DNA of 64,000 nucleotides. Source: a virus. Taxonomy: Duplodnaviria; Caudoviricetes. Positions 42,164 through 64,000 of the stretch are shown one piece after another. A program made the translations under genes and the position numbers. Positions within the stretch are counted from its first letter, which is position 1; every line of letters starts with the position of its first letter. The notes under the pieces are model-generated. The model did no database searches. It saw only the letters and a program-made list of their open reading frames with translations, and was not told the origin of the DNA. The stretch covers positions 1 through 64,000 of the IMG/VR virus record IMGVR_UViG_3300028591_000009; one strand, given 5' to 3'.

Positions 42164-42207
42164 AAAAAAAGCCTGGCTATCATTTTTCGATAGCTAGGCT
42201 TTCTTTG
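42164..42207. terminator. Bidirectional terminator at the convergence of the two genome halves
   Basis: A7-GCCTGGCTATC-loop-GATAGCTAGGC-TTTCTTT; the stem contains the TGA of the - strand gene. Confidence 0.85.
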
Positions 42208-42680
42208 TATCCTGATTCCGTTGTTAAGTCTGGATAAGAATAATCCTCCTCTGGTACAGACGCTGTATCTATACCAAGAAGAGGATTTTCACCAAGTAAT
42301 ATACGATTTACATCAGATTCTTCTAAATTCCAAAACTTTAATGTTTTTTCAACGTCGGCTCTATCAAAACTTGGAATTCCTTTTAGCAAACTTTTCATTT
42401 TACTTCCAATCAAAGATATAGTATACAATGTATAATAATGTCCTTGAATTTTAACAGTTTTCCAAGAGTATAAAGACTTCATTTGCTGTATTTTAGACAT
42501 AACAACTGCACCTTCATATGTACGGTCTTCTGCTCTATACAACAAAAATAAATGATTTAACAAGTCTGGATGATTTATATTGTTTATATAACCATTAACA
42601 AATCCAGCCTGACTAGTAAAATCATCTTTTGAAAAATTTTCATCTATTAATGGAATTATTAGTTTTACTTGTGTACTCAT
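42180..42680 (-). CDS. Hypothetical protein, 166 aa
   Basis: ORF coupled by ATGA overlap to the upstream gene. Confidence 0.75.
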   Translation of the reverse strand: MSTQVKLIIPLIDENFSKDDFTSQAGFVNGYINNINHPDLLNHLFLLYRAEDRTYEGAVVMSKIQQMKSLYSWKTVKIQGHYYTLYTISLIGSKMKSLLKGIPSFDRADVEKTLKFWNLEESDVNRILLGENPLLGIDTASVPEEDYSYPDLTTESGYKESLAIEK

Positions 42681-43693
42681 AGGTTCAATGACTCTGAGCC
42701 ATCGCCTTCATAATATTCTCTACTATGTTCCCACTTATTGTTAGTCTGATGCCAATATATATCTTGCATAGCTTTCAATATAGTATCTTTTCTAGAATAT
42801 ACATCAAACTGATCAATCTTAAATACACGAATATCACCACTTCCTGTAGTATCTATACCGATAATATAGAACTCAAAAGACCATTTATTCCAGTCTTCTT
42901 TGAGCTCATATCGCAAATACCATACGACAGCTTGATAATAATAACAAAGCTGTCTGAGATAGTCATATTGATTCATACTATCCTCAAAGTGCCATAACTT
43001 TTGTGTAGTCTTTAAGTCATATATGATAGCTTTCTTATTCTTAAAATCAAGAGTAAGACCATCTAACAATGACTTACACGCAACACCAGCTGCCATTTTT
43101 ACATAGTATGTCCAGTTTATATGAAATTCGTGATGATTCTCAAACACTACATCATCTTTATAATCACGAAGTGTTCTCGAAGCTTCTATTATAGAGTAAG
43201 CAAGTTTATGGGATTGTACATTCTGCTTAATTCTCTCAAGCATTCTGTACTCTGAAGGAGTTATCATAATACGACCATCGTTTTCTTTCAGGAAGTCTAT
43301 ATAATCCTTCAGCGTAGAGGCTATTTTCAGGCCTTCTGACAGCATTTTGTCTTCTGACTTTCCTGCTGTACTATATGCTTCTTTATAAGCGCTTAGAATG
43401 GCTCTATTCGGCTCTATTTCTAAAGAAGATGCTAAAGCCTGACAGAACTTCTCTTGCTGTGCAGAGAAAGGTCTACTTTTGTTCCAGACTACATAGTCCT
43501 TTTGAAACTCTTCAGGCTGTAACAGATACTCGTGAATCATAGTTCCACGCTCCAACACAGGGTTCTTTTCCTCTGGTGGAGGGTCTGTAAGCATCTTATG
43601 CAAAAAGGCTGGTCCCTTGTTTAGGAACCAGCCTATGTTCGAATTGGATATTCTAGTTAAATCCTCATAATAAGGAACTGATATGTCCATCAT
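42677..43693 (-). CDS. PD-(D/E)xK exonuclease (RecE/DUF3799-like), 338 aa
   Basis: ISNS..., GTMIHEYLL, CKSLLD...IYDLKTT, YLRQLCYY motifs. Confidence 0.8.
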   Translation of the reverse strand: MMDISVPYYEDLTRISNSNIGWFLNKGPAFLHKMLTDPPPEEKNPVLERGTMIHEYLLQPEEFQKDYVVWNKSRPFSAQQEKFCQALASSLEIEPNRAILSAYKEAYSTAGKSEDKMLSEGLKIASTLKDYIDFLKENDGRIMITPSEYRMLERIKQNVQSHKLAYSIIEASRTLRDYKDDVVFENHHEFHINWTYYVKMAAGVACKSLLDGLTLDFKNKKAIIYDLKTTQKLWHFEDSMNQYDYLRQLCYYYQAVVWYLRYELKEDWNKWSFEFYIIGIDTTGSGDIRVFKIDQFDVYSRKDTILKAMQDIYWHQTNNKWEHSREYYEGDGSESLNL

Positions 43694-44472
43694 CGTTTAG
43701 ATATGTTAAGGAATTCAATAATATCATCAAAGGAATCATCAGGATTATTCTTTATCTCTTCTCCAAATATAATAACATTATCATAAGATATAGTATCAAC
43801 ATTGCTGCAAATATATTCTGCTGCTGCATCTGCTTTATCTTTATCCCCAATAATATCATTAATGATTCCTTTAACACTATCCTTTGTAAGACCTCCAAAA
43901 CACTTCTTATAACGTATACGAGAACACCTATCGTTCAAATACGTATTGATTTCCTTCTCATCATTACATGTTGCAATAACCATCTTTTTACAAGTAGGTT
44001 TTACACCATCTAAAAATCCAAGGAGATAACGAGTATTCCAATACTTATCGATTTCGTCAAAGATAATACATACATCGGTTGTAAATTTCGCAAAAAACGG
44101 CTCAATGTCATCAGACGACATTTTACTGTCTACTACTATGATAGGCAGGCCAGACTCTTTAGCTATTTTCTTAGCCATAAGTGTCTTACCACATCCTTTC
44201 ATACCACTAAGAAGTATGCCTGTTGTCATCTTCTCAGTTTTATTAAACGTATCGATAGCTTTGTTTATAAATTTAATATCTTTATCGTTCAAATAGTACT
44301 TCTTTGGAAATTCGAAATCTTTGTCTTCGACTAAATAATCCACATACAAATCACGATCGTGAATTAAAGTATATACCTTACCTGGTATAAGATCATAGTC
44401 TACACCGAAAGGTTTTGGGATTATATGGCCGTTATCATTGACAAAAGAATTGTTTTTATTTTGTTTTTCCAT
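43690..44472 (-). CDS. AAA+ ATPase, 260 aa
   Basis: Walker A GMKGCGKT, Walker B IIFDEIDK, sensor TCN, R-finger DRCSRIRY. Confidence 0.85.
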   Translation of the reverse strand: MEKQNKNNSFVNDNGHIIPKPFGVDYDLIPGKVYTLIHDRDLYVDYLVEDKDFEFPKKYYLNDKDIKFINKAIDTFNKTEKMTTGILLSGMKGCGKTLMAKKIAKESGLPIIVVDSKMSSDDIEPFFAKFTTDVCIIFDEIDKYWNTRYLLGFLDGVKPTCKKMVIATCNDEKEINTYLNDRCSRIRYKKCFGGLTKDSVKGIINDIIGDKDKADAAAEYICSNVDTISYDNVIIFGEEIKNNPDDSFDDIIEFLNISKR

Positions 44473-44854
44473 TTTTACTGACTTTAAGTTCTTGAATCAT
44501 GGCGTCTACATCTTTATGATTTCTCACAAGATATAGCTTAGTTTTCGCGTGATGCTTATACAAGTAATACTTGAAAAGCTTCCAACGCAAAGGAAATGAA
44601 TCTCCCATAAGACCTTTACATTCTACTATAAAACCTCGTCCTACGAAGTCTGGTAGATATGTAATAGGTCTTATTTTTTGACCCATCCACTCGAACTTTG
44701 GTAGCAGAGTAAAATGCTTTGGCTCATATTTTACAGGTATCCCTGCTTCCATAAAAGCTTCATACGTATAGAGTTCGAGCTTACTACGAAAATGTAGTCC
44801 ATACGCATCGACCGCTGTCGCATTTTTAACCCTACCTTTAGACTTCGACATCAT
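44456..44854 (-). CDS. DUF1064 / T7 endonuclease I-like nuclease, 132 aa
   Basis: FRSKLE...YEP...YLPDF...VECKG motif series. Confidence 0.8.
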   Translation of the reverse strand: MMSKSKGRVKNATAVDAYGLHFRSKLELYTYEAFMEAGIPVKYEPKHFTLLPKFEWMGQKIRPITYLPDFVGRGFIVECKGLMGDSFPLRWKLFKYYLYKHHAKTKLYLVRNHKDVDAMIQELKVSKNGKTK

Positions 44855-45098
44855 AACAGATGTCCTTCACACCTCTATCGTCTAATCGAACTGCTGTAAT
44901 GATTTTACCATTCTTTCTTATAGCAACATAGGTATACTTGTCATTATCAAACTTTCTATCTATGGCTATCAGTTCGTATCCATCCGATAAACTCTTAATC
45001 ACATAAGGCTGTGTAGCATTCTTATATGAAATGTATAGTGATACGATTGTGGTGATAAACGCACCCAAAAACGTACCAAGGATCAATGTCTCAACCAT
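44838..45098 (-). CDS. Small membrane protein, 86 aa
   Basis: N-terminal hydrophobic helix; overlaps both neighbours. Confidence 0.7.
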   Translation of the reverse strand: MVETLILGTFLGAFITTIVSLYISYKNATQPYVIKSLSDGYELIAIDRKFDNDKYTYVAIRKNGKIITAVRLDDRGVKDICYDVEV

Positions 45099-46062
45099 AC
45101 TGTATTGTTTTTTGTAACCAATTCTTTACTTCTGTAAAGTCGTTTGACTTCACCGCGTCCGAAATATCTTTTGAGTTAAACTTCTTATGGACAAATATAG
45201 CATCTATTTTATATTTCTTACTATATTCTCTAGCTTTCCTCATACCAGTTGCATCTCTGTCAAATAGTATGACAATACGCTTCCATTTATATCGTAAAGA
45301 CTTCAATATATCATCAGGTATAAATGTAGTCTCACTCGAAGGTGATATAGCACTAAAACCCATCTCATACAAACACATAACATCTTTTAAAGACTTAGTG
45401 ATTATAAGGATATCCCCTCCCTCATAGGGCAGTTCAGCCAATCCCTGTACGTGCCGATTTGTCAGATTGGTACGCCATTTAGTATACTTTGAGGCTAAAG
45501 GTCTATAAATTTTAAATTTATCATAAACCTTATATGCATACATAGGACTGGTATCTTTGTAGGTTCCTCTGACGACTCTATTACAAAGATAGTATTTAAT
45601 GCTAAATACATTGAATTTCTTCAACGTATCCAGAGATATATGGAATTGCTTCCAGTATTTTTTATCAACTTCTGTAAATGGTTGACGAACTATTCCGATG
45701 TCAGATTCTCCAGAAGGAGTATATGACCGTGTCACAGTTGCCACACTGCTGGTTGGATTGGATCGCTTAACGATTCTCAGCAGTTCTTTCTCTAGTTCCT
45801 CACGTGTTTGAATATTCTTATAGAGTTTCATGAACTTCAGAGCATTTCCAGACACTCCTGTTCCATGATCTTTAAACAATAAAGCACCATCCTTAGTTGC
45901 GAATATAGCGAACGATGGCATCTTATCGTCTCCTCTTAAAGGACTATTCATAAGTTTCCCTGGCTTAAAAGCACCAAGATAATAAGAATAGATAGTATAG
46001 TCATCCACTTTATTCAACAAGTCTCTAAGACTCATTGTAATCGCTGTTTTTGTACTATACAT
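45091..46062 (-). CDS. DnaG-like primase, 323 aa
   Basis: SPLRGDDKMPSF (degenerate Zn-binding region), TOPRIM ITKSLKDV, FDRDATG, KDISD. Confidence 0.85.
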   Translation of the reverse strand: MYSTKTAITMSLRDLLNKVDDYTIYSYYLGAFKPGKLMNSPLRGDDKMPSFAIFATKDGALLFKDHGTGVSGNALKFMKLYKNIQTREELEKELLRIVKRSNPTSSVATVTRSYTPSGESDIGIVRQPFTEVDKKYWKQFHISLDTLKKFNVFSIKYYLCNRVVRGTYKDTSPMYAYKVYDKFKIYRPLASKYTKWRTNLTNRHVQGLAELPYEGGDILIITKSLKDVMCLYEMGFSAISPSSETTFIPDDILKSLRYKWKRIVILFDRDATGMRKAREYSKKYKIDAIFVHKKFNSKDISDAVKSNDFTEVKNWLQKTIQYG

Positions 46063-46083
46063 GGCTTATAAGCTCTTAGTATG

Positions 46084-46166
46084 TGGGAAATGAGGGATTC
46101 GAACCCTCACGGTCAACTGACCAAGGGATTTTAAGTCCCTCGCGGCTACCTTTACGCCAAAATCCC
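46084..46166 (-). tRNA. tRNA-Leu(TAA)
   Basis: Cloverleaf with AGGGA-CTTAAAA-TCCCT anticodon arm, long variable arm, GAGGG-TTCGAAT-CCCTC T arm; two U-U mismatches in the acceptor stem. Confidence 0.85.
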
Positions 46167-46170
46167 GACC

Positions 46171-46470
46171 TTATACAACTCTAAACTCATTCTTGAGTTT
46201 ATTTTTAAGTTGCCATTTGTACATTTTTTCAATTTCTTTCAATTGTGAATCATCTTCACAATAATCTACCCAAGGTGTCCATACGACACCTTCATGGGTC
46301 CAATATTGATATCGTTTTTGTATCATAACTGAAGGGGCTGACAGATTTATTCCATCAGTCTTCCACCACTGACCGTTTATTCTAACATAATCGCCAGCAA
46401 TACACTTTCGTGGGCTGTCAACGTGCGAATATACGCGTATTAAATTAGAAAGGTTGGTCGTCAGCACCAC
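46171..46470 (-). CDS. Hypothetical Trp-rich protein, ~99 aa
   Basis: GTG-start ORF in operon orientation. Confidence 0.55.
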   Translation of the reverse strand: MVLTTNLSNLIRVYSHVDSPRKCIAGDYVRINGQWWKTDGINLSAPSVMIQKRYQYWTHEGVVWTPWVDYCEDDSQLKEIEKMYKWQLKNKLKNEFRVV

Positions 46471-46476
46471 TGACTG

Positions 46477-46596
46477 TCATAACCAGTAGAACGGGTCGTT
46501 TTTTCGTCTCCATTCCCTTAGTTTCAGCCAATCATCATAATGCATATAGTATGTAATACCATTTACATTAATCTCAAAAAGGCAGGTCGTCAGCAC
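46477..46596 (-). CDS. Small ORF, 39 aa (MLTTCLFEINVNGITYYMHYDDWLKLREWRRKNDPFYWL)
   Basis: GTG start overlapping the SSB end; fills the gap between two direct repeats. Confidence 0.45.
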   Translation of the reverse strand: MLTTCLFEINVNGITYYMHYDDWLKLREWRRKNDPFYWL

Positions 46597-47164
46597 CTGT
46601 AGTCTCAGTAACCGGAGCAGTTGTTACACTGAGCGGATCTGCAGCAGGTTCTCTATCTGCTACAATGGGACGCTCCAAAAGATCGTTCTTCCAAAGCTTA
46701 ATCTGAGACTCTGTTACACTCATAGGTTCAATGAAAATACCATTCTTGGATACCTGTGTATAACCGTTCTTATCATAAGTTACCTTAAGACGAGCGGTAC
46801 CACTTTCTCCATCGTTAAGACACATCTTAGCCCAAGTAATCATCTCGATAAATGAAGAACCTTCAAAATCGTTATGACCACCTTTAATTGCATCTATTAC
46901 CTGCAGAATACGACCGAACTGCTGATTATCACGACGCTGAAGATCTTCATCCGTCTTAATCCACATATTCTTCTCATTCTTCCACTCAGTCATAGTAGCG
47001 GTCTGACCATTTTCATTCTCAAAGATAATCTCCAAGAAATCACGACCGTTAGGTGTCTTATTAACGTTTACCTCTTTTAAGGTAATATTCTCATTAATGC
47101 CCACAGGCATATATGAAGAGTTAAACTCCTCATTATTTGTTGTTGCTGTTTTTGTACTATACAT
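46574..47164 (-). CDS. Single-stranded DNA-binding protein, 196 aa
   Basis: Acidic C-terminal tail GADDLPF; lies next to an AAA_24 ATPase and primase. Confidence 0.75.
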   Translation of the reverse strand: MYSTKTATTNNEEFNSSYMPVGINENITLKEVNVNKTPNGRDFLEIIFENENGQTATMTEWKNEKNMWIKTDEDLQRRDNQQFGRILQVIDAIKGGHNDFEGSSFIEMITWAKMCLNDGESGTARLKVTYDKNGYTQVSKNGIFIEPMSVTESQIKLWKNDLLERPIVADREPAADPLSVTTAPVTETTGADDLPF

Positions 47165-47181
47165 AATTTTTAAACTCTGAG

Positions 47182-47928
47182 TTATACTTCTGGTTTATAA
47201 ACACGATCCCAATAGGTTGTTATAGTTCCATCTTCGTTACCTGTTGCTATAACAATATCTTTACCTGCGATGTGCCTAGCACGTGCTTCCATAATCGTTC
47301 CGTCTCCTCCAGACTTGAAGCTGATGTGAGTTTCATTATCTTTGCGATAGACGTACCCGACAGCGTCGGCCATACCACACACAATTTTCCCAAGTTTACC
47401 AACGAGGTCGATTTCTTTTGCGTTAACTTCTTCTCCATCTTTATCGGTGATACTGTCTTTGACATGGCCTATTAGAATAAATTCGTCACAAAGGTCCTTG
47501 AACATATCAATTACCTTCTTCACAGCGTCTCTTAGATATTTGTAACCTGCTCCACGAGCGAGCGTAGTGACATCCGTTCCTTTCCAGTTTTTTCCAAGTT
47601 CCGTTTGTCTATATAGAGTGCAAGCATAAGACATACAAATGTCTTCAAGACGTGTGGCATTGTCTATTGTAATGTGTTTATAGAAATTATGTCCCAACTC
47701 ATCATTCTTAGCTCGAACGGCTTGTGCAATCTCTCCAAGATCATTAATGGTACGTGCCTGAACAGCTAGCGCATCAATGAACTTAGATCCGCCTTCAAGG
47801 TCTATGATGAGATTATTCTCCAACTGAGCTACAGCACTGGTCTTACCTGCCTTAGGAAGGCCGTATAAAACCAAATACTGCGGATTAGTCGAAGTTGCAG
47901 GAACTTTTTGAGTTGGTAATATTATCAT
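47182..47928 (-). CDS. AAA_24 / Sak4-like ATPase, 248 aa
   Basis: YGLPKAGKT, IIDLEGG, ITIDNAT, LIGH, ADAVGY motifs. Confidence 0.85.
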   Translation of the reverse strand: MIILPTQKVPATSTNPQYLVLYGLPKAGKTSAVAQLENNLIIDLEGGSKFIDALAVQARTINDLGEIAQAVRAKNDELGHNFYKHITIDNATRLEDICMSYACTLYRQTELGKNWKGTDVTTLARGAGYKYLRDAVKKVIDMFKDLCDEFILIGHVKDSITDKDGEEVNAKEIDLVGKLGKIVCGMADAVGYVYRKDNETHISFKSGGDGTIMEARARHIAGKDIVIATGNEDGTITTYWDRVYKPEV

Positions 47929-47949
47929 ATTGACTTATAGTTCTAATGA

Positions 47950-48426
47950 TTAAAGAAGATTAATATTAATATTAGCTGCACCGTTGGTGTAGATATTAAT
48001 AATAGTCTTCTTGGTATTGGTACTCAATGACTTCAGGAAGTTGAAATCAGAGAAATCGGTATACTTATATGAATCGAAACCGATCTGGATCTCATCCTCG
48101 TAGAAAACAATGGGGGTACCATCACTCAGAGTATACATCTTACCGTAGATATACGGAATAGAGTAACTCTTCTTATACTTCTTATAATTAGCAAGAAAAT
48201 CAATAGCGTTGTCAAGCTTAGTATCATACTTCTTGCCCAGAAGAGCCTTGAAGAGGGCAGAGTCCTCATCATTCTTCTTACTGTTGTTAAACAGATAACT
48301 ATTCTTCTTAATTACATCAGCAATAACAAGATCGTCAAGAATCTTAGAATAGTTGGGTTTGCTACTAGTTGAAAAGGGAATACTATTGTTGTTGTTCTTC
48401 TTACCAAAAGTGTATGTTGTAATCAT
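47950..48426 (-). CDS. Hypothetical protein, 158 aa
   Basis: ORF in operon orientation with biased codons. Confidence 0.7.
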   Translation of the reverse strand: MITTYTFGKKNNNNSIPFSTSSKPNYSKILDDLVIADVIKKNSYLFNNSKKNDEDSALFKALLGKKYDTKLDNAIDFLANYKKYKKSYSIPYIYGKMYTLSDGTPIVFYEDEIQIGFDSYKYTDFSDFNFLKSLSTNTKKTIINIYTNGAANININLL

Positions 48427-48467
48427 AATTCAGCCTATTTTTTAAGTTAATACTAGCCATCTGCGCA

Positions 48468-49391
48468 TTAACTTTCAACCAGATTGTTGTACATCAAATC
48501 GTTCTCGAATTCAAGAATACAAGGCTTTCCTGCATCTCTGTTTTTCAACATGTGCATGTACACCTTATTTTGTGTAGGTAAACGGTTTGGACCGTACTCT
48601 TGGATGTTCAATATCTCTGGTCTATGCATCACAAGGACATAATCGCTTGCTTGGAACATTGCATCAGATGACGATAAATCACTTCTCATTGGGTAATGAC
48701 TCAATGGGTTGTTTATCCTCTCTGAAGACTCAATATTTCTATTCATCTGAGCGATCTGTATAACTGACGTCATCGGGAGCTTTTTAGCCTGGATGAATAC
48801 TCTTTCGAGTTCAGATGTAGTTTCTATAACAGAACCTACTTGTTTTGTCAGCAACGTGTGATCGTATACAATAATAAAGTGTTTCTTAGAACCCTTTATA
48901 TGTGACTCATAGAAAGATTTAATAGTTCGTTCTACCTCTGAAGGAGTAGTTGGATTATCTACAAAATAGATAGGATACTCTTTCAACTGGTTAGATACTG
49001 CAACTACGCGTTTAAACGTCTCATCGTCCAGGTCCATTTCTGAACTATACAAGGTAGAAGTAGTTATTCGAAGTTTATTCGACAACGTTCTTCCAACTTG
49101 CCTAAATCCAACCATCTCTAATGAGAAGTTTAGAATGACTATGTCTTCAGTTGGATTCAAATCAATTATGTCGGTAGTTAGCTCATTAACAAATGAGCTC
49201 TTTCCACTTCCAGATATACCAGCTATGGTAATGACAGTATTAGGTTCAATACCTCCCATACACTGCTTATTAAACTTTCTCCACCTAGTTTTAAGAGATA
49301 CAATATTATGCTCTCTTCTTCCTCTAACGTAGTTGATAGCCTCTTGGGCCACAACACTCATCGGACGTACATTAGATAAGTTCTGTTCCAT
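48468..49391 (-). CDS. DnaB-like replicative helicase (C-terminal ATPase domain only), 307 aa
   Basis: AGISGSGKS, FSLEM, VYDH, AQMNR, SDLSSSDAMFQASD, KNRD. Confidence 0.9.
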   Translation of the reverse strand: MEQNLSNVRPMSVVAQEAINYVRGRREHNIVSLKTRWRKFNKQCMGGIEPNTVITIAGISGSGKSSFVNELTTDIIDLNPTEDIVILNFSLEMVGFRQVGRTLSNKLRITTSTLYSSEMDLDDETFKRVVAVSNQLKEYPIYFVDNPTTPSEVERTIKSFYESHIKGSKKHFIIVYDHTLLTKQVGSVIETTSELERVFIQAKKLPMTSVIQIAQMNRNIESSERINNPLSHYPMRSDLSSSDAMFQASDYVLVMHRPEILNIQEYGPNRLPTQNKVYMHMLKNRDAGKPCILEFENDLMYNNLVES

Positions 49392-49938
49392 AAGAGTTTA
49401 CTGATATTTTGGAATTATCGTTCATTTCATCTTCTACAGCTTCCCATTGGCTACGTGTCAACCAATTCCACATGGTCATCATATAGCTAAGAGAGCCTTC
49501 TCTCATACGCTTAGATACTTCATAGTCGAGACACTTAATAATATGCTCGGCCATTGCAGAACTCCTTCCGCACTTGGTATTAAAGAAATGTCGACACTTA
49601 TTTACGTTCGCACGCAGATAAGATTTACTTCCATCCGCTCTCACAACATACACAGGATACATATCATAGAAAAGGTCGAAGTACTCTTTTTTAAGAGTAA
49701 CTTGTTGTAACAACTTCTCTGATGGTTCATATGTAACTGAATCACCTCTCCCTATCGAGTTGACCAAATGTTGATCGAGTAAGTATTGTATTTCGTCGTC
49801 GCTGATTAGGCTGACAATCTTGCGGACGTCTTGATATTTAGGCTGATTCTTATCCAACACAATACTCAGAAACAATAATTGATTTGCGTTTAATTCTGGA
49901 TTTTCATCCAAAATCTTTGTGTTTACTTCAATAATCAT
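49372..49938 (-). CDS. Putative replication initiator / helicase partner, 188 aa
   Basis: Possible N-terminal wHTH, FDLFYDMYP...WNWL motif; overlaps the dnaB-like gene. Confidence 0.55.
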   Translation of the reverse strand: MIIEVNTKILDENPELNANQLLFLSIVLDKNQPKYQDVRKIVSLISDDEIQYLLDQHLVNSIGRGDSVTYEPSEKLLQQVTLKKEYFDLFYDMYPVYVVRADGSKSYLRANVNKCRHFFNTKCGRSSAMAEHIIKCLDYEVSKRMREGSLSYMMTMWNWLTRSQWEAVEDEMNDNSKISVNSYGTELI

Positions 49939-49968
49939 ACTATCGACTCTTGGGTTCTAAGTGTATTA

Positions 49969-51840
49969 CTAAAATAATTCTAGTTGTTGTTCAGTAAAGT
50001 CAGCAATTATCTTTTTGGCTTCACTGGTATAGTAACGATAGTTAATTTTGCGATCTTCTATCGGTGTATCATCAAACTTATTCAGGATTGTTACTCCTGA
50101 TTTTGTTAACATATTTGTTCGGTCTCTACCATCTTCAGGATTATCCTTATAAAGGTATTCACCGTTAGTGCTTGCATAAAATCTATTGATACGTTGTACA
50201 GGTTTATCACCATGCATAACTTTAAACTTCTTATCTACAGCTTGTGACATTAAGAAATCACGGATATCTTTATCCTTCTCAATAGTTTCTGTCACTGGAA
50301 TGTTATGGACAAAGTAATTTATTACAGCTTTTGGAATGACTACTGGTGCTAGTCCCTTCCCAAGCTTTGTTTTTGTAATAAACATACCTTTTTCTTCTAT
50401 CTCTCCGCCTTTCAAGACCCCAAAGTAGTCATTGATAGCGTATTGATAGAATGCTTCGTACTCATCTACTTCAAAACCAAGTTGTGTAATCTGTTCTACC
50501 TCTGAGATGGCTCTCTCTATACCCTCTTTAAGGCTGTTTTTAGCCCTGTAGACGACGCCATCAGTGTTGACCTGAATGATTTCACATCCAAGCTCCAAAA
50601 GCCTGTCTACAAGCATTAAAAGGATTAGCTGACCGTTTATTCTAATCTTAAAAACATTGAACGGATCATACATCCAACTTACCTCCTGTTGCATTTTACC
50701 AGTAGGAGAATTAAGCACGATCTTTAGAAACAGATTCTTAATCTTTTGACCAGTACGTTTTGCTTCTATTCGTTCATAATAAATACCTTCGAATATATCG
50801 CAAAATAGTTTTCCTAAGTGTCGAGGACCCAATTGATACTTAATTAATAAGCTTGGATACATACTAGTGACGTCGGCGTGTCCTATGTGCTCGTCATCTT
50901 TAGGGTGGAATATTTTCGGAGTATGTATAGAGTGAATACCTCCTACGCCTACTGAATACACCACATTTGAGAGAACAAACTTCTTCTCATAGCCTTTGCG
51001 CTCTTTAGAGTATACGATCTGTTTCTTCATATCCTCAAGAACGTCCTGTAACTTTGGATTTTTGTATTTTATAAACGGCAGAATAACATCCTTCAATGGA
51101 ATATAATCCATAGGAGAACGCATTTCCTTTATAACATTTTTTGGAATACCTGACCGTTTAGAATATTCTTCTAACAGGAAGGTTTCTGCCATTTTAACAC
51201 TGTCCATAGAAAGACAATCTATGCCGTGTTCTTTTTCGATAAACAACCTTAAATCGATTTGCTCTTTCAAGCGGCTTAATAACTCAGTAGTCGATTCAAC
51301 ATCGTTTATATTGTATGCTATCATTTCGTCAATTTTATCTACAGGCAAGGGTTGATCGAAATCTCCCTCATACTCATAGACATTCTTATAGTGCATTGTA
51401 ACCTGCATGGTTTTCAAACCCACTCTAAGCTTTTGACTAAACTGCATTGTGAGTAAGTCCATAGACTCGAAGTAATGTGCATACTTCCATCGTTTGAGCT
51501 TCTCACGACTCCCATCTTCGTCTTCCACTATCGTAGTAGATAGATTAAACAAAGACTGACAAATCTTCCAATAAGGTAAACTTGCCAGTGTATGTGAATA
51601 ATCAATTATATAATTGATTATAACATCGTCATAATGATGGTTATTATAACCACAAAACATTCGCATGCTTTGTTTACCCTCAGATAAAAAGAAACCAACT
51701 AGATCTTCTAGTTGATTCCTTCTTTCTGATATCTCAAATTTGTATAGTCGACTTGTCTCTGTATCTTTACAGCAACAGTGGAAACAATTAGGGAATATCT
51801 CTACGTCGTATACGTAGACTATTCGATTTCGTATCCACAT
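49969..51840 (-). CDS. Family B DNA polymerase, 623 aa
   Basis: Exo motifs YDVE, GYNNHHYD, YNINDV; polymerase motifs DVTSMYPS, KIVLNSPTG, NTDG; stop is TAG TAA. Confidence 0.9.
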   Translation of the reverse strand: MWIRNRIVYVYDVEIFPNCFHCCCKDTETSRLYKFEISERRNQLEDLVGFFLSEGKQSMRMFCGYNNHHYDDVIINYIIDYSHTLASLPYWKICQSLFNLSTTIVEDEDGSREKLKRWKYAHYFESMDLLTMQFSQKLRVGLKTMQVTMHYKNVYEYEGDFDQPLPVDKIDEMIAYNINDVESTTELLSRLKEQIDLRLFIEKEHGIDCLSMDSVKMAETFLLEEYSKRSGIPKNVIKEMRSPMDYIPLKDVILPFIKYKNPKLQDVLEDMKKQIVYSKERKGYEKKFVLSNVVYSVGVGGIHSIHTPKIFHPKDDEHIGHADVTSMYPSLLIKYQLGPRHLGKLFCDIFEGIYYERIEAKRTGQKIKNLFLKIVLNSPTGKMQQEVSWMYDPFNVFKIRINGQLILLMLVDRLLELGCEIIQVNTDGVVYRAKNSLKEGIERAISEVEQITQLGFEVDEYEAFYQYAINDYFGVLKGGEIEEKGMFITKTKLGKGLAPVVIPKAVINYFVHNIPVTETIEKDKDIRDFLMSQAVDKKFKVMHGDKPVQRINRFYASTNGEYLYKDNPEDGRDRTNMLTKSGVTILNKFDDTPIEDRKINYRYYTSEAKKIIADFTEQQLELF

Positions 51841-51867
51841 GACTCATAGGTTCTTTAGTTAATACTA

Positions 51868-51948
51868 GGGACAGGTGCTGGATTCGAACCAACATTCTAC
51901 AGCTGACCTATAGCATTACTGCAGTACTACCATTATACTAACCCATCC
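51868..51948 (-). ncRNA. tRNA-like RNA with 14-nt anticodon loop
   Basis: 8-bp acceptor GGATGGGT/ACCTGTCC, D arm GTAT-AATGGTA-GTAC, T arm GTTGG-TTCGAAT-CCAGC. Confidence 0.7.
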
Positions 51949-51951
51949 TTG

Positions 51952-52050
51952 TGTACACCGAGGAATCGAACCTCTCTCCGTTTCGCGAGGACTCGCTTGG
52001 CGATGTCCACGAAGAACCGTCCTAACGTCAATTAGACTTCGGTAGTGTAC
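51952..52050 (-). ncRNA. tRNA-like RNA with expanded, branched core
   Basis: Acceptor GTACACT/GGTGTAC-A, T arm GAGG-TTCGATT-CCTC, internal stems ACCG/CGGT, TCTTCGT/ACGGAGA, GGAC/GTCC. Confidence 0.65.
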
Positions 52051-54075: not shown

Positions 54076-54618
54076 TTACGCTGCCATATCAATCTTAAAC
54101 ATATCTGCTGTTGCAGCATCGAGATCGATAGAAGTCTTCGTATTAAAGTCCTCCATTGCAGTATCAAACTTGTTAGCCTTCAACTGGAGATCCTTAATCA
54201 TAGAAGCAATCTTTGCAGATGTGAATACCTCATCCTTACCGATATTCTTCAGACCCTTCTGAGCCTTAGTCTTCTGGTCAAGAGTAGGAATCATCTTCAA
54301 CTGACAAATAGCCTCCTTCATCTCGCAAGCCATAAAAATACTATAATTGTTCGTCTTCTTAAACGCCTCCTTGTCAAAAGTAGTAATACCCATATTCAAA
54401 TACATAAGCATACCCTTAATATAGACAAGTTTCTCGGCCATCTGTGTGATCTCATTATAGAGATTCTTCACATCATGGGAACGCAGACCAGCCTTAATCT
54501 CTTTCTTGGAGAGAAGGTTCTCTGCCTTAATATAATTCCAATACTTCTTCTTCTTAGAATTAATCTCATCGCGCATAGCGATTATCTTACTTGAATTCAA
54601 CTTAATTGATTTCGTCAT
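54076..54618 (-). CDS. Basic helical hypothetical protein, ~180 aa, ends IDMAA
   Basis: Track ORF 54076..54693; the ATG at 54618 (MTKSIKL) is the more plausible start. Confidence 0.7.
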   Translation of the reverse strand: MTKSIKLNSSKIIAMRDEINSKKKKYWNYIKAENLLSKKEIKAGLRSHDVKNLYNEITQMAEKLVYIKGMLMYLNMGITTFDKEAFKKTNNYSIFMACEMKEAICQLKMIPTLDQKTKAQKGLKNIGKDEVFTSAKIASMIKDLQLKANKFDTAMEDFNTKTSIDLDAATADMFKIDMAA

Positions 54619-55484: not shown

Positions 55485-56159
55485 TTACTCGTTAGATGTA
55501 TGAACGTTAATCACACTCGTAGCGCCACCATTAAGGATGTCCTTAATCTTGACATTATCCATCTTGGAGTCGTTCCACTCCTTAGAAATCTCATCTGCTT
55601 TCTTATCGTTCTCGACGATAGCGCCCTGGATGTTCTGCTTCATCTTGTTCAGAGCTGACATCAGCATGTCAATGTTCTTGAGTTCAGCGCGGTTAGCGTC
55701 GTTCAGAACCTTGGCAACCTTCTTAGCGTCCAGGAAGAAGTTCTCACCCTCAGCGTGAATAGCAGCCTCGATTGCATCTTCGATGGGCTTCTCGGTTACA
55801 ACTGGATTAACACCGTTGTTGAGCGGGAAGAACAAATCACGAGTGCCATCGGGGCGAGCATTGATAGAGATACCTACCTGCTTAGCCTCACCGATACCTA
55901 CTGTATCGAAGCAAGCACCAATGATATCCTTGGTACGGAGCGTGTACTTGCGAGGAGAACGATTGGTAATCAACAGAGCAACACCAGGAGTGTTTGCCTG
56001 CTTCTTGTCGTTCTCAAAGCCTTCCTTGCCGCCGGCCCAGATTTCCTTCATTTCAACTTCAGTGTAAGCTTTGCCTAGCAAAGCACCAATAAGACTAGCA
56101 GCCTGACGAGTGCTAGGGATGACGTTTGAAATATTAACGTCGATAGTTTTTTCTGCCAT
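55485..56159 (-). CDS. Hypothetical protein with C-terminal coiled coil, ~224 aa
   Basis: Biased codons; AAAAATGGCA start context at 56159 as in the genes at 60230 and 63833. Confidence 0.75.
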   Translation of the reverse strand: MAEKTIDVNISNVIPSTRQAASLIGALLGKAYTEVEMKEIWAGGKEGFENDKKQANTPGVALLITNRSPRKYTLRTKDIIGACFDTVGIGEAKQVGISINARPDGTRDLFFPLNNGVNPVVTEKPIEDAIEAAIHAEGENFFLDAKKVAKVLNDANRAELKNIDMLMSALNKMKQNIQGAIVENDKKADEISKEWNDSKMDNVKIKDILNGGATSVINVHTSNE

Positions 56160-56229
56160 TTTTCTTTCCTTTTTGATATCGTGGTTGATCCACCAACGAA
56201 AGATTAATAATTCCTGCTTCAAGGTGCAG

Positions 56230-58340
56230 GTTTACCTTGTTTTATATAAGTTTTACATCCGGCTCGGTGGCTCTACTAGATGTTGACGTTAGACGGTTAT
56301 TGTGATTTCAGTTGCTGTGCTTACGGGAAGCACGCTTCTATTAGAGACTAGTTACACTTCTATATTCCTTAAAATGAAGCTCAACTCATGTAACGGGAAT
56401 CCAACGGTAGGATTATCTAAGCCCATCATCTCAATAGGTTCGAAAACTTTGAACGCTGAATATGTGTATCAAACACTAACCCTATTTGTCGGTATGTTTA
56501 TATTTTCGTAAACATTTATTAAATTTATATTAAATCCAATATTCACTTTTTTCGAGTCCGTTGGCAAAATTTTGGAATTATCCAACTAATGTTCATAGGA
56601 CTCACCACAAAAATTTTGCATAGTTTCTCTGTTAGTATATTTCCCAAGTACCTTAAGAGTTAACTACACTACGATTGTCATTTAACCACAGATTTTCTCT
56701 CCTGTTGCATGATTTAAGGCTCATACTACTATTACCTTTCCTTGTTATTTCAACGTGCTTGTGTTTACCTACGTAAGGATTACGTTTCTTTATCGAACAA
56801 TCTAAGAGCTCCATAACTCTTTTCAAGTACTACGATTTAAAATTCTTCCTAGCGATTCTACGGTACTAAATATTTCTTCTCTTGGATGTGTTTACTCACC
56901 CTCATTATTTATAGTGCACGAATACTGGAGGAATTCCACCTCATACATCGCTTCTTGTCACCCACTTAATGTTCCGCTTCATCGAGTCCTAGTTTCACAA
57001 ACTATCCCAAATGCAACTGGTTGTACGGTTTGCTACTTCTATTTCCTTTACCCCTCCGAGACAGGGAGGTGATTTCACTTCGCGATAAGCTGCCCATCGA
57101 TTAAATGTATATGACTTCATGGTCTCTACCGAACACATAGATTTGCTGTCTATGCTCTGATAGGATTCATCTTGTCTATTTGCTTCTCAGGAACGGTTGG
57201 CACTCGATTTCTGGCGTGAAAGCACTCACAAACATTACAAACGGAGTCTTTCGTTGATATACAACATTAATTTCTCCCAGCCAGGGGACATCAATTTTTG
57301 TTAAACATGTTAATTATCTCTTTTGTTTTCTACTACGTATTATCTTCGTTAGAATCTTCTCCCGATAAAGTATAACGGTATATTGTATACAGTTCGTCAT
57401 CTAACTATCATCTTACTTTCGAAGGAAGCGATCTCTCTCTATACTGGAATGTATAGGCTTCGAATCGACCACCTAGATAAGAAATTTTTGGCTATCTAGT
57501 AACCATCTAAAACGCATTTCCTCATCCTTCAAACATAATACTCGCTTACCAGTACTTGTTATCAATTGAAATAGAGTTTCTCCGCGCTCTTCATCCGCGT
57601 ACCATAGGCTCCAGAACCATATGGATTAAGTGGCGCATCCACTTGTAGTCATTTCCTCTTATATCCCGCACAAACGACTAAAGCCTGGCGGTCATCTTCA
57701 TCATATTTTCCTCTGTACCCCATCCCTGGCACCCCTTCAACGGAGTTGTGCACGAATCGAACGGCAAGGATTTCTCCAAGGACCGTAGTTACGGTACGGC
57801 GCAGACAGTCACACCTTCTGCTAGGCGAATATACTCAGATATTTTTCATCCCTTCATACACGTTGTGGAGACGTGGAACACTAGACTACAGCTTAAAGTT
57901 GATACATCATTGAGTGTTTTGGCTTCAAACTCAATGTTGCGACTCCTGTTTCGTTATGCTATCCTTATGTATCATCAGATAGTATGTCGAATACGGTTCA
58001 GTTTTGCCCATCATTCGGGACTTATGCGTCTTCCTTACTAATACCCCACACTTCAAAGAGTCTGGCAAGAGCATAAAGGACTCTGCTGGTATATATTAGT
58101 GTTAGGGTCTGATACATACGCTCACCCTACTTACTATAAGCGATTCGATTATGTAGTACGCATAAAACTTATAGCATTTCATCCTACCTTTTGGATTTCT
58201 CACCATTTGAGATGGCTAACATATTCTCGGATCAAGTTGTACTATTCGCATTCTAAGGTTGATGAGACCTACTCCGTAGACGAATGCTGACGTGTGCCCA
58301 TCGGGCGGGGAATGTATGAATCCTCATACATCCCCCATGC
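56230..58340 (-). ncRNA. ~2.1-kb structured non-coding region; candidate large ncRNA(s)
   Basis: No - strand ORF of 60 aa or more; dense inverted repeats, nested helices and one pseudoknot; purine-rich - strand. Confidence 0.55.
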
Positions 58341-60313: not shown

Positions 60314-60727
60314 TCAAGAATCGTCTACAATTTCTACACTGTTTGGCGGGTTTGGCAAAGCGTGTAGGTATAGTCTATGAGTCACCCCACAGACATCACT
60401 TAAAGTCTGGTTAGGCTCAACCATATCAGGCGTATAATCCTGACTCACAAGGCTTGAAGTTACCTTCACTGGTGTTGTATAGTCTACATACTCAGGAATA
60501 CATACGAATGTTCCCTGTGTAGCCAACAACCCTTGTGTGGGGTACGCCTGGTTGAGCATGACCTGACTTTGTTCCTTCTTTTCGATTGCCTTATGAGCAA
60601 TCGTTCCTACTGTGAAAGCTAATGTATAGCTTACAAATAGGGCCCAGAATACTTTGTTGCTATTGTTGTATCTTGCGATACCCAATATAAACAGTGTTCC
60701 GAGAATGAACAATAAAGCTACTGTCAT
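60314..60727 (-). CDS. Two-TM membrane protein, 137 aa (possible anti-sigma partner)
   Basis: Two N-terminal hydrophobic helices; ATGA-coupled to the sigma gene. Confidence 0.65.
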   Translation of the reverse strand: MTVALLFILGTLFILGIARYNNSNKVFWALFVSYTLAFTVGTIAHKAIEKKEQSQVMLNQAYPTQGLLATQGTFVCIPEYVDYTTPVKVTSSLVSQDYTPDMVEPNQTLSDVCGVTHRLYLHALPNPPNSVEIVDDS

Positions 60728-61287
60728 GATTGTAATTTTAAACGTTGTCTTAACTTACGTCTAGTCCTGGAGAGCGTGGATTTTATAGTTCCTACTGGTA
60801 CTCTAGGATTAAACGTCTTACTAATCTCTTCTACGGTTAAATTATCTACATAAAATCTTTCAAAGATCTTACGAGTGACCTCTGGAAGTTTCTCAAACTC
60901 ACGAAGTAGTTCCTTATACGTCAGATGATTGACTAAGTCATCTTCAGCACAAGCCTGAATATTGGAGTTTAGTCGGTCCTCCTTTATATCAGCTACTTGT
61001 TTGTTCTTTATACTACGCAAATAATCAATTGCAGTTCGATTAGTCAATATTCGCAGCCAACCCCCAAAGGAGTCGTATGCTACAAATTTCGAGAGTTTAT
61101 CATGCACTTTAAGAAAGACAATATTTGCCACTTCTTTAGACTCGTCCATATCTTTTAGATACTGGAACAAAAGACTCTCTACAAAGCCTTTATACTTGTA
61201 GTAAAGTGCATTAAAAGCAAGCTCATCGCCTGCTTGCGCTTTTTTGATTAAGTCAACTTCAGTTGGGGTGATTCTAGGATTCTTCAT
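60724..61287 (-). CDS. ECF-type sigma-70 factor, ~187 aa
   Basis: AQAGDELAFNALY, SFGGWLRILTNRTAIDYLR (region 2), LPEVTRKIF...VGTIKSTLSRTR (region 4). Confidence 0.9.
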   Translation of the reverse strand: MKNPRITPTEVDLIKKAQAGDELAFNALYYKYKGFVESLLFQYLKDMDESKEVANIVFLKVHDKLSKFVAYDSFGGWLRILTNRTAIDYLRSIKNKQVADIKEDRLNSNIQACAEDDLVNHLTYKELLREFEKLPEVTRKIFERFYVDNLTVEEISKTFNPRVPVGTIKSTLSRTRRKLRQRLKLQS

Positions 61288-62362: not shown

Positions 62363-62364
62363 AG

Positions 62365-62438
62365 TGATTCCTGAACGATTCGAACGTTCGACCGACAGAT
62401 TAGAAATCTGTTGCTCTATCCAACTGAGCTAAGGAACC
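62365..62438 (-). tRNA. tRNA-Arg(TCT)
   Basis: GGTTCCT/AGGAATC acceptor, GCTC-AGTTGGATA-GAGC D arm, ACAGA-TTTCTAA-TCTGT anticodon arm, GAACG-TTCGAAT-CGTTC T arm. Confidence 0.92.
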
Positions 62439-62551: not shown

Positions 62552-62860
62552 CGTTCACAGGCACTTAGGTAGCCTGTACACCGACTTCACGCTGCCTCCT
62601 GGAGACCCGTGTAGTCTGCAATGTTATAATTGCCAGTTAATTTTTATATCGAAGCGCTTAACGTCTTACTTTCCGCTGCCGTCAAAACCATTCAAGCCCA
62701 GATTAAAAGCTCCCGCCTCTATCCTCTGTACACCTTCTTCAGTGCCAGCGAGTACACAATTCAGGGAGCTTGGAGTGTTAATCAATAATACACGTGGACC
62801 TGGGCGGAATCGAACCGCCGTCCGAACAGCATATCCTAGGACACGCTAAGATTTCACTTG
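62552..62860 (-). ncRNA. ssrA: Circularly permuted (two-piece) tmRNA: acceptor piece ~62860-62795, intervening sequence 62794-62700, coding piece 62699-~62552
   Basis: Acceptor GGGCUUG/CAGGUCC-A with G3-U70; GGUUUUGAC D-loop analogue; GGAC-GGCGG-UUCGAUU-CCGCC T arm; tag frame 62634-62587 = GNYNIADYTGLQEAA-UGA after UUAACU. Confidence 0.88.
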
Positions 62861-63006: not shown

Positions 63007-63263
63007 CATTGCCCTGACTGACTCTCTGGTTCTTGCAGAATATACTCGCATTCTTGATATACAACGCGGTAGCTGCTTCCCTTAATGAAGGTTGACCGCT
63101 CACAGTAGCACCGGTTCATGACTCATACGTCGTAATTGTTGATCTAATGGCAGCATATTATTACACCGTGCTGACGGTGTTGATTTTCGCACGTGACTCA
63201 AAGGTTCTTGTGTATGTGTCAATTCACATAAAGCAGACTACTTCATCCATACCAGGCGCAATG
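63007..63263 (-). ncRNA. ~260-nt structured RNA candidate
   Basis: Closing helix CAUUGCGCCUG (63263-63253)/CAGGGCAAUG (63016-63007); internal hairpins ACACCGT/ACGGTGT and TATGTG/CACATA. Confidence 0.5.
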
Positions 63264-63338
63264 CCATTTTTACATTTTTCGACTGCTTATACACCACTGA
63301 TTCTAGGATTCTGGGTGAGTGAAAATCATATAATGGGA

Positions 63339-63833: not shown

Positions 63834-64000
63834 TTTTGATAAATGTTTAATTGTTTAACTTAAAGTTTATTTATATTCCTCATAAGTTGAGGCTTTATGC
63901 TTTACTGTACGTGTGTACGGCACTGCATTCTTGTGTTTTGGACTCTCTGACTTAAAACGTATTGTTTTGCCATTAAATCCGTACTTACCATGACACATAT

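Follow-up and report, generated by a model that had tools for sequence, protein, structure and literature searches.

A small hairpin motif is found 0-14 nt 5' of the start codon at seven replication-module genes of a 106.6-kb rumen crAss-like phage (Suoliviridae, Oafivirinae), and copies are also found on phage non-coding RNAs, giving 12 or more copies in this DNA phage. The evidence supports the motif as one selected base-paired element common to the replication genes, and comparison of sequences points to a putative, undescribed RNA-level control circuit acting on these genes. The best explanation, with about an even chance of being correct, is that the hairpin is an operator for one putative RNA-binding reader that would control translation initiation, with a hairpin-bearing non-coding RNA as its decoy or platform. 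The window analyzed is a 64,000-nucleotide stretch of this genome; coordinates refer to the window, and all motif copies described are on the minus strand.

Motif and sites at the replication genes

The hairpin consists of 5'-A-G-A, 2-3 bp, and a three-base loop closed by C-G or U-A, with one unpaired A per strand and a closing G-C pair. The fixed letters (A-G-A...A...C) are in the stem and flanks, while the loop letters are variable. A sequence-only reading of the window described the bulged A as invariant, but in some lineages both of the bulged bases are U. The six sequences that the same reading assigned to replication genes were all found at their minus-strand coordinates, and the enrichment near starts that it proposed to look for is present: the strict paired pattern occurs within -3 to 20 nt of the start of seven genes in this genome, compared to 0.19 expected (100 local shuffles, maximum 2 genes), and all seven are within the replication block at 42.6-51.9 kb. 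Each of five sister genomes has 6-8 strict-site genes, all in the replication module, with 0.2-0.36 expected across genomes. Looser patterns gave a divided result, in that AGARYYNNNRARYY occurs 17 times in the window compared to 6.99±2.58 expected (0 of 100 shuffles reach 17), but the 13-mer form by itself is not enriched there (9 versus 7.06 expected). The distance from site to ATG is gene-specific with a range of 0-15 nt, and in relatives the distribution peaks at 0-4 nt.

The hairpin AGAACCTATGAGTC (51841-51854) abuts the ATG of the family-B DNA polymerase (PolB) gene (49969-51840) and is preceded by a tRNA-like gene (51869-51947). In about 40 related loci the site likewise directly adjoins the ATG (0 nt), with a variable loop and stems of the types AC/GT, GT/AC, GC/GC, or ACT/AGT. 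Gene 49372-49938, which has a weak ScpB-like match, has AGAACCCAAGAGTC (49945-49958) 6 nt before its ATG; in orthologues the site is 2-8 nt upstream and includes variants with a G.U pair (AGAGCC..GAGTC) or with pair 2-14 changed to U-A (TTAACC..GAGTA). The DnaB-like helicase gene (48468-49391) overlaps this gene and lacks a separate site. For the AAA_24/Sak4-like gene (47182-47928), AGAACTATAAGTC (47932-47944) is 3 nt before the ATG, and the orthologous variants are GC/GC, AT/AT, CG/CG, and AAAGTC..GAACT, where pair 2-14 becomes A-U. The primase gene (45091-46062) is abutted at its ATG by AGAGCTTATAAGCC (46063-46076), directly 3' of tRNA-Leu (46083-46166), with the variants GT/AC, AC/GT, GCC/GGC, and AAAGCTTAAGCTT. 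Downstream of primase, the overlapping genes 44838-45098 and 44456-44854 each lack a site.

The site of the SSB-like gene (46574-47164) required revision. It had been placed at 47165-47178, where AGAGTTTAAAAATT abuts the ATG and has A-U and G.U pairs only; this stretch corresponds in relatives to the spacer 3' of the true site, and its membership in the motif set is doubtful. The conserved site is probably AGAAGTATAACTC (47179-47191), 14 nt before the ATG, in agreement with relatives, where the SSB site is 8-15 nt upstream; it overlaps the preceding gene's stop codon. Its stem, AGT/ACT, is the transversion-compensated form of ACT/AGT.

Two sites are within overlapping coding sequence. The AAA+ ATPase gene (43690-44472) has AGAACTTAAAGTC (44480-44492) 7 nt before its ATG and within the end of the DUF1064 gene, and compensated variants occur inside this coding sequence (AGAATT..AAATC and AGAACC..GAGTC); the clade without the motif has different codons at this position. 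Gene 42180-42680 has AGAGTCATTGAACC (42682-42695) 1 nt before its ATG and within the end of the exonuclease gene (42677-43693). The motif had been recognized here as a near-copy, a label that does not hold since it is a full member with its stem letters swapped. This hairpin does not vary among 12 related loci, even though the protein encoded downstream shares only 25-35% identity; it has the form AGAGACACTGATCC (stem GA/TC) in cr272_1, and in the clade without the motif near-synonymous changes break it. Pairing is maintained within overlapping coding sequence solely in the motif-bearing clade. An identical 17-mer reported inside ssb does exist but was rejected as a site: it encodes a conserved E-P-M-S peptide, and the same codons are used in phages without the motif.

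Base pairing and strand

The motif is present at the same genes across 82 related loci, where pairs 4-13, 5-12, 6-10, and 2-14 covary with at least seven stem types; those at orthologous sites are AC/GT, GT/AC, GC/GC, AT/AT, AG/CT, CG/CG, and GA/TC, and pair 2-14 switches from G-C to A-U or U-A. Covariation across relatives had been suggested as a check on the RNA interpretation. With positions 4, 5, 12, and 13 left unconstrained, 52 distinct 14-mers had a covariation score of 0.676 compared to 0.361±0.029 when shuffled, with 0 of 500 shuffles as high, and 88.9% of cells were paired compared to 72.8±1.7% in shuffles; slid registers scored 0.13 or less. In 959 kb of relatives, both pairs are present in 70% of matches just 5' of sense-strand starts, but the share falls to 17% for matches elsewhere and to 13% for those on the antisense strand. 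True orthologous sites include G.U intermediates (AGAGCC..GAGTC in loci L003, L004, and L023), while A.C combinations are at background level (2 observed versus 3.7 expected). Because G.U is tolerated and A.C is not, the structure is that of the sense strand and not the template strand.

Most contexts of 40-53 nt have minimum free energies of -2.4 to -3.9 kcal/mol, and none is clearly better than shuffles. The hairpin is thus unstable alone yet its pairing is selected, which implies that it is held by some partner. The free variation of the loop letters speaks against a shared RNA partner.

Copies in non-coding RNAs

Four hairpin copies (63299-63312, 63195-63208, 63113-63124, and 63020-63033), each on an extended stem, are in a non-coding RNA (63020-63312) upstream of a permuted tmRNA. 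Conservation of these copies extends to 10 related genomes and cr7_1, and both the inner and the flanking stems covary. When positions 42000-64000 were searched against Rfam (E<=0.1), only tRNA and tmRNA models matched, with no family for the four-hairpin RNA. A 2.1-kb non-coding stretch has another copy, AGAGCCACCGAGCC (56261-56274), at its 3' end. This copy is on an extended stem, 101 nt 5' of gene 55485-56159; it is at the same place in genomes G001-G005, with the covarying flanks CATCC/GGATG, GCGCTC/GGAGCG, and TCCAC/GTGGA. Since the non-coding copies are atop covarying stems, the motif works in RNA. The non-coding RNA copies were absent from the list in the sequence-only reading. A possible further member is AGAATCCTAGAATC (61270-61283), which has the same sequence as the first copy of the four-hairpin RNA and occupies codons 2-6 of an ECF-type sigma factor gene (60724-61287); at this position the motif is inseparable from the conserved KNPRIT peptide.

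Variants in bulge (A to U) and loop length agree between the non-coding RNA and mRNA copies. Genomes G009 and cr7_1 have the U-bulge variant in both the non-coding RNA and the gene starts, G008 has a 5-nt-loop GAGCC variant in both kinds of copy, and G000-G005 and G010 have the A-bulge type in both. That the two kinds of copy change together favors one reader, with 1-2 independent switches available to check. The sister clade (G006 and G007) retains the hairpin RNA, but its replication genes have no sites; this suggests that one clade added the replication operators to a more ancient pair of RNA and reader, whose primary job would be something other than control of the replisome.

Proposed mechanism

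The mini-hairpin is probably bound by one trans-acting reader, which would most likely be a protein. Sites 0-14 nt before the start codon would fall in the region that the 30S subunit must occupy, and a bound reader would therefore set the translation initiation rate, presumably for the whole replisome module simultaneously. The simplest version is repression by occlusion, in which genes overlapping a regulated gene would follow through translational coupling; however, the ATG-abutting sites put G or C at -1 to -5, and activation through reader-dependent initiation could equally fit. The four-hairpin RNA and the 2.1-kb RNA, which have more stable extended stems, may compete as decoys or act as a platform. 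An RNA operator had been proposed from the start-codon copies, by analogy to repression by T4 RegA or gp43; the shared selected pairing, the sense strand, the position 0-15 nt before the start codon, and the RNA level all agree with this, but the RegA homologue is absent. Across the whole 106.6-kb genome there is no match to RegA (PF01818, Translat_reg) with E<=1, nor was a CsrA-family protein (PF02599) found in the phage genome or a Pfam RNA-binding domain in any scanned early or middle phage protein. Two candidate reader proteins, chosen on weak grounds, gave structure models without an informative fold match, and a search for proteins tracking the A or U motif type across genomes found none.

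A more complete account can be offered tentatively: a self-contained Oafivirinae circuit in which a reader of a new family would recognize the two-bulge pseudo-triloop hairpin and be titrated or carried by the ancient four-hairpin RNA, and in which one clade copied the hairpin onto its replisome starts, giving timed translational control in a host without Shine-Dalgarno initiation. In a bolder version of this circuit, the hairpin would recruit ribosomes and the non-coding RNA would compete for them.

Alternative explanations

The sites are at cistron borders, two of them directly after tRNA genes, and in its small size and fixed flanking letters the hairpin is similar to what hairpin-specific nucleases cut. 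The motif could then be an endoribonuclease recognition site or stability element, with cleavage splitting the long tRNA-bearing replication transcripts and the non-coding RNA; copies in non-translated RNA fit this, and cuts at 44480 and 42682 would give non-stop mRNAs in a phage whose tmRNA adjoins the four-hairpin RNA. Cleavage is nevertheless rather unlikely. The gene-specific distance to the ATG (0-15 nt) would give no uniform leaderless product, a cut within either of the two overlapping genes upstream would destroy its message, and a search for a nuclease domain near the sites found none.

It is also unlikely that the hairpin is a positive element recruiting the ribosome, directly or via a reader, so that the replication genes would be translated only with the reader. 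Bacteroidota are known to initiate translation without Shine-Dalgarno pairing, and this is the host phylum inferred for crAss-like phages; moreover, the ATG-abutting sites take the place of the A-rich leader that precedes other phage genes, and the hairpin is by itself not strong enough to conceal a start codon. However, the mRNAs would then have four high-stability copies on a non-coding RNA as competitors, which is sensible only for a brake; no rRNA complementarity was noticed, and in the sister clade the same genes are translated with no such element before them.

An RNA signal acting on transcription, such as nut/put-like antitermination read by RNA polymerase or a phage factor, is improbable. 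Lambda N and boxB provide the precedent of small extruded-base hairpins bound by arginine-rich peptides, and the module has terminator-like hairpins, for example at the end of ssb. The gene at 63339-63833, just upstream of the four-hairpin RNA, encodes a charged protein that is Arg-rich over one stretch and weakly matches a 'transcription factor' PHROG (E 0.0014), with nothing other than this adjacency linking protein and RNA. Unlike boxB with its GNRA-like pentaloop, the loop here is not conserved. Antitermination needs no fixed relation to the start codon, yet seven genes have the site at 0-15 nt, and multiple sites per operon, a few hundred bases apart, would be unnecessary.

Strand-specific sites 5' of genes and a phage-encoded ECF sigma factor could also suggest a DNA-level element: a promoter for a virion RNA polymerase or ECF sigma factor, perhaps an N4-like hairpin, or a single-stranded-DNA hairpin that serves replication. 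In vitro, the virion polymerase of the crAss-like phage phi14:2 is active only on DNA that is single-stranded or denatured, and an early promoter motif for it was not identified (bioRxiv 10.1101/2020.03.07.982082); the N4 virion polymerase uses hairpin promoters (PMC4496689). N4 promoters are likewise small three-base-loop hairpins 5' of genes, in a phage that injects its own RNA polymerase, but they have 5-7 bp, are template-strand DNA, and are about 11 nt before the transcription start, whereas the hairpin here is on the sense strand, is embedded in folded RNAs, and abuts start codons. A DNA-level element is very improbable: the tolerance of G.U but not A.C is that of the sense strand, the non-coding copies at the tips of longer stems with covarying flanks are transcribed and folded as RNA, four promoters in 300 nt of one structured RNA are unlikely, the PolB and primase sites are 6-14 nt after tRNA genes, two sites are within overlapping coding sequence, and a spacing of 3 nt between the half-sites rules out -35 and -10 boxes.

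Comparison with known systems

As an operator for one reader, the motif resembles the sites of T4 RegA (and autoregulation by gp43 and gp32) in that one post-transcriptional signal occurs at the start regions of many replication genes, including polymerase, accessory ATPase, and SSB-type genes. RegA sites, however, are unstructured, AU-rich, and poorly defined, while those here are covarying hairpins, in a host that probably does not use Shine-Dalgarno-based initiation; RegA is not known to have a decoy RNA. The analogy proposed earlier is apt for the multi-gene arrangement, but without a RegA homologue in the genome the likeness to RegA or gp43 is in logic only. Given the non-coding copies, a Csr-like or decoy circuit is as good an analogy. 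CsrA/RsmA with CsrB/RsmZ also uses a hairpin motif that is single at target starts and multiple on a dedicated non-coding RNA, and the arrangement seen here has four copies at 63020-63312, one at 56261-56274, and single copies at starts. Unlike the Csr/Rsm systems, there is no GGA motif in the hairpin loops of targets or non-coding RNA, the loops are variable, the non-coding RNA has four copies and not 9-22, and the system is encoded by a phage.

The coat protein of the RNA phages MS2 and PP7 represses translation by recognizing hairpin shape and a few fixed bases, and its operator is also a small bulged-A hairpin adjoining or covering the start codon. Those operators have stems of 7-8 bp that are stable alone, a fixed loop, and one copy per genome, while the hairpin here has 2-4 bp, two bulges, and contexts no better than shuffles. 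The iron-responsive element (IRE), bound by IRP, acts on initiation when placed in the leader. It has a six-base loop in which bases 1 and 5 pair to leave a pseudo-triloop with the sixth base unpaired, and a bulged base on the 5' strand below the loop, as does the phage motif; the IRE, however, is found in eukaryotes, its stem is longer and its loop is fixed as CAGUGN, and the likeness is of form only.

Genome context and gene identities

crAss-like phages rank with the commonest viruses of the gut. Apart from the fact that they use a virion polymerase and the host polymerase, to our knowledge almost nothing is known of the timing of their gene expression. The phage studied here has a complete genome of 106,602 bp with direct terminal repeats, of which the window is the first 64 kb, and the named phages most closely related to it are the crAss-like cr272_1, cr273_1, and cr131_1 (Crassvirales, Suoliviridae, Oafivirinae). 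The phage or close strains are present in gut samples from sheep, goat, and cattle. TAG is a sense codon in the plus-strand late genes, which occupy 1-42106 (+) of the window and 75.7-106.6 kb of the genome, are open only if TAG encodes an amino acid, and include TAG-dependent proteins of 5,975 aa and 2,163 aa; with TAG read as Q, coding density is 0.92 instead of 0.69. On the minus strand, the block between 42,180 and about 75,500, comprising the replication module and the early genes, uses the standard code.

The gene names given in the sequence-only reading hold, based on family searches and the annotation of relatives. Homologues of the DNA polymerase gene (49969-51840) are annotated as DNA polymerase in cr272_1 and cr131_1. 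Family searches identify the DnaB-like helicase, the AAA_24 / Sak4-like protein, the SSB-like protein (weakly), the DUF1064 protein, and the AAA+ ATPase, while the primase and exonuclease are named from relatives. A tRNA at 51869-51947 (-) is recognized by Rfam and missed by ARAGORN, with further tRNA-like sequence just upstream (51869-52050). Terminator-like hairpins occur at the end of ssb (46583-46599, -) and, as a two-sided structure, at 42168-42202, where the replication module meets the converging late genes.

Motif sites at replication genes

The motif is an RNA mini-hairpin of about 14 nt in which positions 4-13, 5-12, 6-10, and 2-14 pair and each strand carries an unpaired base. The six sequences quoted from the initial reading were all found where it had placed them. 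There are 17 occurrences of AGARYYNNNRARYY in the window, where 7.0±2.6 are expected; the 13-mer version by itself shows no enrichment. With the strict paired pattern, seven genes in this genome have a site no more than 20 nt upstream of the start against 0.19 expected (maximum of 2 in 100 local shuffles), so that the enrichment near starts proposed as a check is present, and 7/7 of these genes belong to the replication module. Each of five sister genomes has 6-8 strict-pattern genes, and the motif is found at the same genes in 80 IMG/VR loci and three RefSeq phages.

Individual sites required some reassignment. The sequence first taken as the SSB site, AGAGTTTAAAAATT, corresponds to the spacer that follows the true site in relatives, where the site is 8-15 nt upstream of the ATG; the sequence in that place here is AGAAGTATAACTC (47179-47191), with the stem AGT/ACT. 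The supposed near-copy at gene 42680 belongs fully to the set, its stem letters being swapped. It lies inside the last exonuclease codons and is unchanged in 12 loci, while in the clade that lacks the motif near-synonymous codons at the exonuclease end break it. The AAA+ ATPase site is also within coding sequence, yet has compensated variants. The identical 17-mer inside ssb was ruled out as a hairpin site, since it codes for a conserved peptide, EPMS, and motif-less phages use the same codons there.

Base pairing and covariation

Covariation was scanned over 959 kb using a pattern with positions 4, 5, 12, and 13 unconstrained. Of the matches shortly before a sense-strand start, 70% have 4-13 and 5-12 both paired; the figure is 17% at other places and 13% on the opposite strand. 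The distance of matches to the start peaks at 0-4 nt. Among 52 distinct 14-mers selected irrespective of pairing, 88.9% of cells are paired compared to 72.8±1.7 in shuffles. The covariation score is 0.676 (0.361±0.029 in shuffles), reached in 0/500 shuffles, and no slid register exceeds 0.13. Stem types found in turn at individual orthologous sites are AC/GT, GT/AC, GC/GC, AT/AT, AG/CT, CG/CG, and GA/TC, and the G-C of pair 2-14 is replaced by A-U or U-A.

The halves of the motif resemble a direct repeat, GARYC...GARYC, but the two match exactly only where the inner dinucleotide is self-complementary (AT or GC), and otherwise they differ (AC with GT), which fits pairing and not a plain repeat. 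Reading the two GA steps as a K-turn, a T-loop, or tandem G.A pairs conflicts with the covariation of 4-13 and 5-12.

Copies on non-coding RNAs

Four copies of the hairpin are found on a non-coding RNA at 63020-63312 (-), which lies between an early gene and a permuted tmRNA and is without a usable reading frame. Every copy sits at the tip of a longer stem with compensated changes in its flanks across ten related genomes and the human-gut phage cr7_1; for the second copy the flanks include CAC/GTG, ACGTA/TACGT, and CATAC/GTATG, and the inner stems vary as well. The circularly permuted tmRNA (62587-62845, -; Rfam RF04321, 64.5 bits) is directly downstream of this four-hairpin RNA and is followed by a tRNA-Arg (62364-62438). 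One further copy, also on a covarying stem (56261-56274, -), is at the 3' end of a 2.1-kb gene-free stretch (56160-58320, -). No Rfam family matches the hairpin. The public RNA runs consist of contigs, and nothing is concluded from the greater depth of contigs covering the non-coding RNAs; contig ends at 47928 in three of these runs were taken as assembly-graph breaks at a border between conserved and variable sequence.

Two other copies were noted. Codons 2-6 of an ECF-type sigma factor gene (Sigma70_r2, r4_2, ECF) read as a possible hairpin copy, and the overlapping gene that follows (the two together spanning 60314-61287, -) encodes a protein with an N-terminus that is hydrophobic and by eye looks membrane-spanning, in an anti-sigma-like placement. 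Beyond the window, at 67564-67577 (-) of the genome, the copy AGAATCTTGGAATC has a 4-bp flanking stem (TGCT/AGCA) and is 36 nt upstream of the early gene 67147-67527.

Evidence for a common reader

By itself the hairpin is unstable. Folding energies are -2.4 to -3.9 kcal/mol for most 40-53-nt contexts, and no context clearly outperforms shuffled sequence. The loop letters vary freely, while A-G-A, the unpaired A, and the closing C are fixed. Because pairing is selected although the hairpin is weak and the loop free, a partner recognizing shape and fixed letters would be needed, and this combination usually marks a site bound by protein.

The bulged A, initially described as invariant, is replaced by U at both unpaired positions in the related genome G009 and in cr7_1, and there the U type occurs in both the non-coding RNA and the gene starts. 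Likewise, in G008 both kinds of copy show a GAGCC variant whose loop has 5 nt, and G000-G005 and G010 have the A type in both. These matched lineage variants predict one reader, a trans-acting factor common to both kinds of copy. In G006 (A type) and G007 (U type) the four-hairpin RNA is kept and there are no replication-gene sites, which indicates that the RNA-reader pair is older and that the replication-gene sites were added in one clade.

Proposed function and alternatives

No mRNA copy is more than 15 nt from a start codon, and among the cistron groups of the module that start independently only gene 47950-48426 is without one; the helicase, the exonuclease, and two small genes after the primase have no site of their own and overlap a regulated gene. 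The earlier proposal of an RNA operator for coordinated translational control stands in that a covarying element is present on the sense strand at replication starts; the translational control itself is a proposal with about an even chance, in which the hairpin is a reader-bound operator on translation initiation and the non-coding RNAs are a decoy or platform. A reader bound near the starts would control 30S access across the whole module, overlapping genes would follow their regulated neighbour by coupling, and the stable multi-copy hairpins of the non-coding RNAs would act as decoy or platform. Within the operator reading, repression is more likely than activation.

A nuclease site is rather unlikely; scans of early and middle proteins, with Pfam for all those scanned and PHROGs for 20, found no RNA-binding domain and no nuclease. 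A positive ribosome-recruiting element is unlikely, and an antitermination-type RNA signal is improbable. Four lines of evidence point to RNA: the tolerance of G.U but not A.C, the four copies at 63020-63312, the copy at 56261-56274, and positions that do not suit promoters. True orthologous sites include G.U steps (AGAGCC..GAGTC), whereas A.C combinations are at background (2 compared to 3.7 expected), which argues for structure on the sense strand; this line is modest, since many of the 23 G.U cases are overlaps or involve the doubtful SSB site. A DNA element is highly improbable, as promoters are not expected at the tips of conserved RNA helices and the PolB and primase copies are only 6-14 nt behind tRNA genes. 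The halves were also considered as -35/-10 boxes of the ECF sigma factor and rejected, the spacing being 3 nt and the stems variable. Promoter-like sites in a sigma-70 scan were at chance (55 compared to 47.4±7.9), with a model that is uninformative for this inferred host.

Candidates for the reader were sought among the phage proteins, where annotations from domain searches are limited to the ECF sigma factor, DnaB_C, AAA_24, AAA, DUF1064, and amidase. Gene 55485-56159 seemed motif-specific by presence, but has weak homologues in motif-less loci. No protein similarity tracks the A or U type (G007, G009, and cr7_1 compared to G006 and others; G009 is only 63% complete). Two genes were modelled as candidates on weak grounds: 47950-48426 (pLDDT 67) has no PDB match, and 54076-54618 (pLDDT 91.7) is a helical bundle with a best Foldseek E of 0.18 and a best VIA-align Z of 8.0, in the range of generic helical matches.

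Relation to known systems

The regulatory logic is like that of T4 RegA, an analogy already made in the sequence-only reading, and of Csr/Rsm with sponge RNAs, but the phage genome has neither a RegA nor a CsrA gene, and the GGA motif is absent here. MS2/PP7 operators are also alike in logic, while the present hairpin has no stable stem; the IRE is alike in loop geometry. None of these systems is a family match. A study of crAss-like phage transcription described host-type middle promoters, no early motif, and nothing on such hairpins (bioRxiv 10.1101/2020.03.07.982082), and no description of the motif was found in the literature.

With its length of about 14 nt and the compensatory variants available in nature, the RNA element is a testable handle, and through it the replication genes are tied to the phage tmRNA locus and to two conserved non-coding RNAs. 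Identification of the reader would define a new RNA-binding specificity and give a view of translation control in Bacteroidota-type initiation, and the U-bulge form in cr7_1 extends the motif to human-gut phages. The motif also marks true start codons, which aids annotation of these genomes. The DNA polymerase of cr7_1 (NC_055895.1; L157/L158) is annotated too short, the frame and conserved N-terminus beginning about 400 nt upstream of the annotated ATG.

Other leaders were observed in the same block. Gene 47950-48426 is preceded (48427-48467, -) by AGTATTAAC, 8-12 nt, and AGGCTGAATT-ATG, an arrangement conserved in nearly all relatives. Directly before the ATG of several early genes stands the leader AAACATTTATCAAAG (63834-63850, -; genome 65129, 68171, and 69295), and gene 55485-56159 has the related leader TATCAAAAAGGATAAG, before which there is a covarying hairpin (CGTTGGTGGATCAACCACG and variants).
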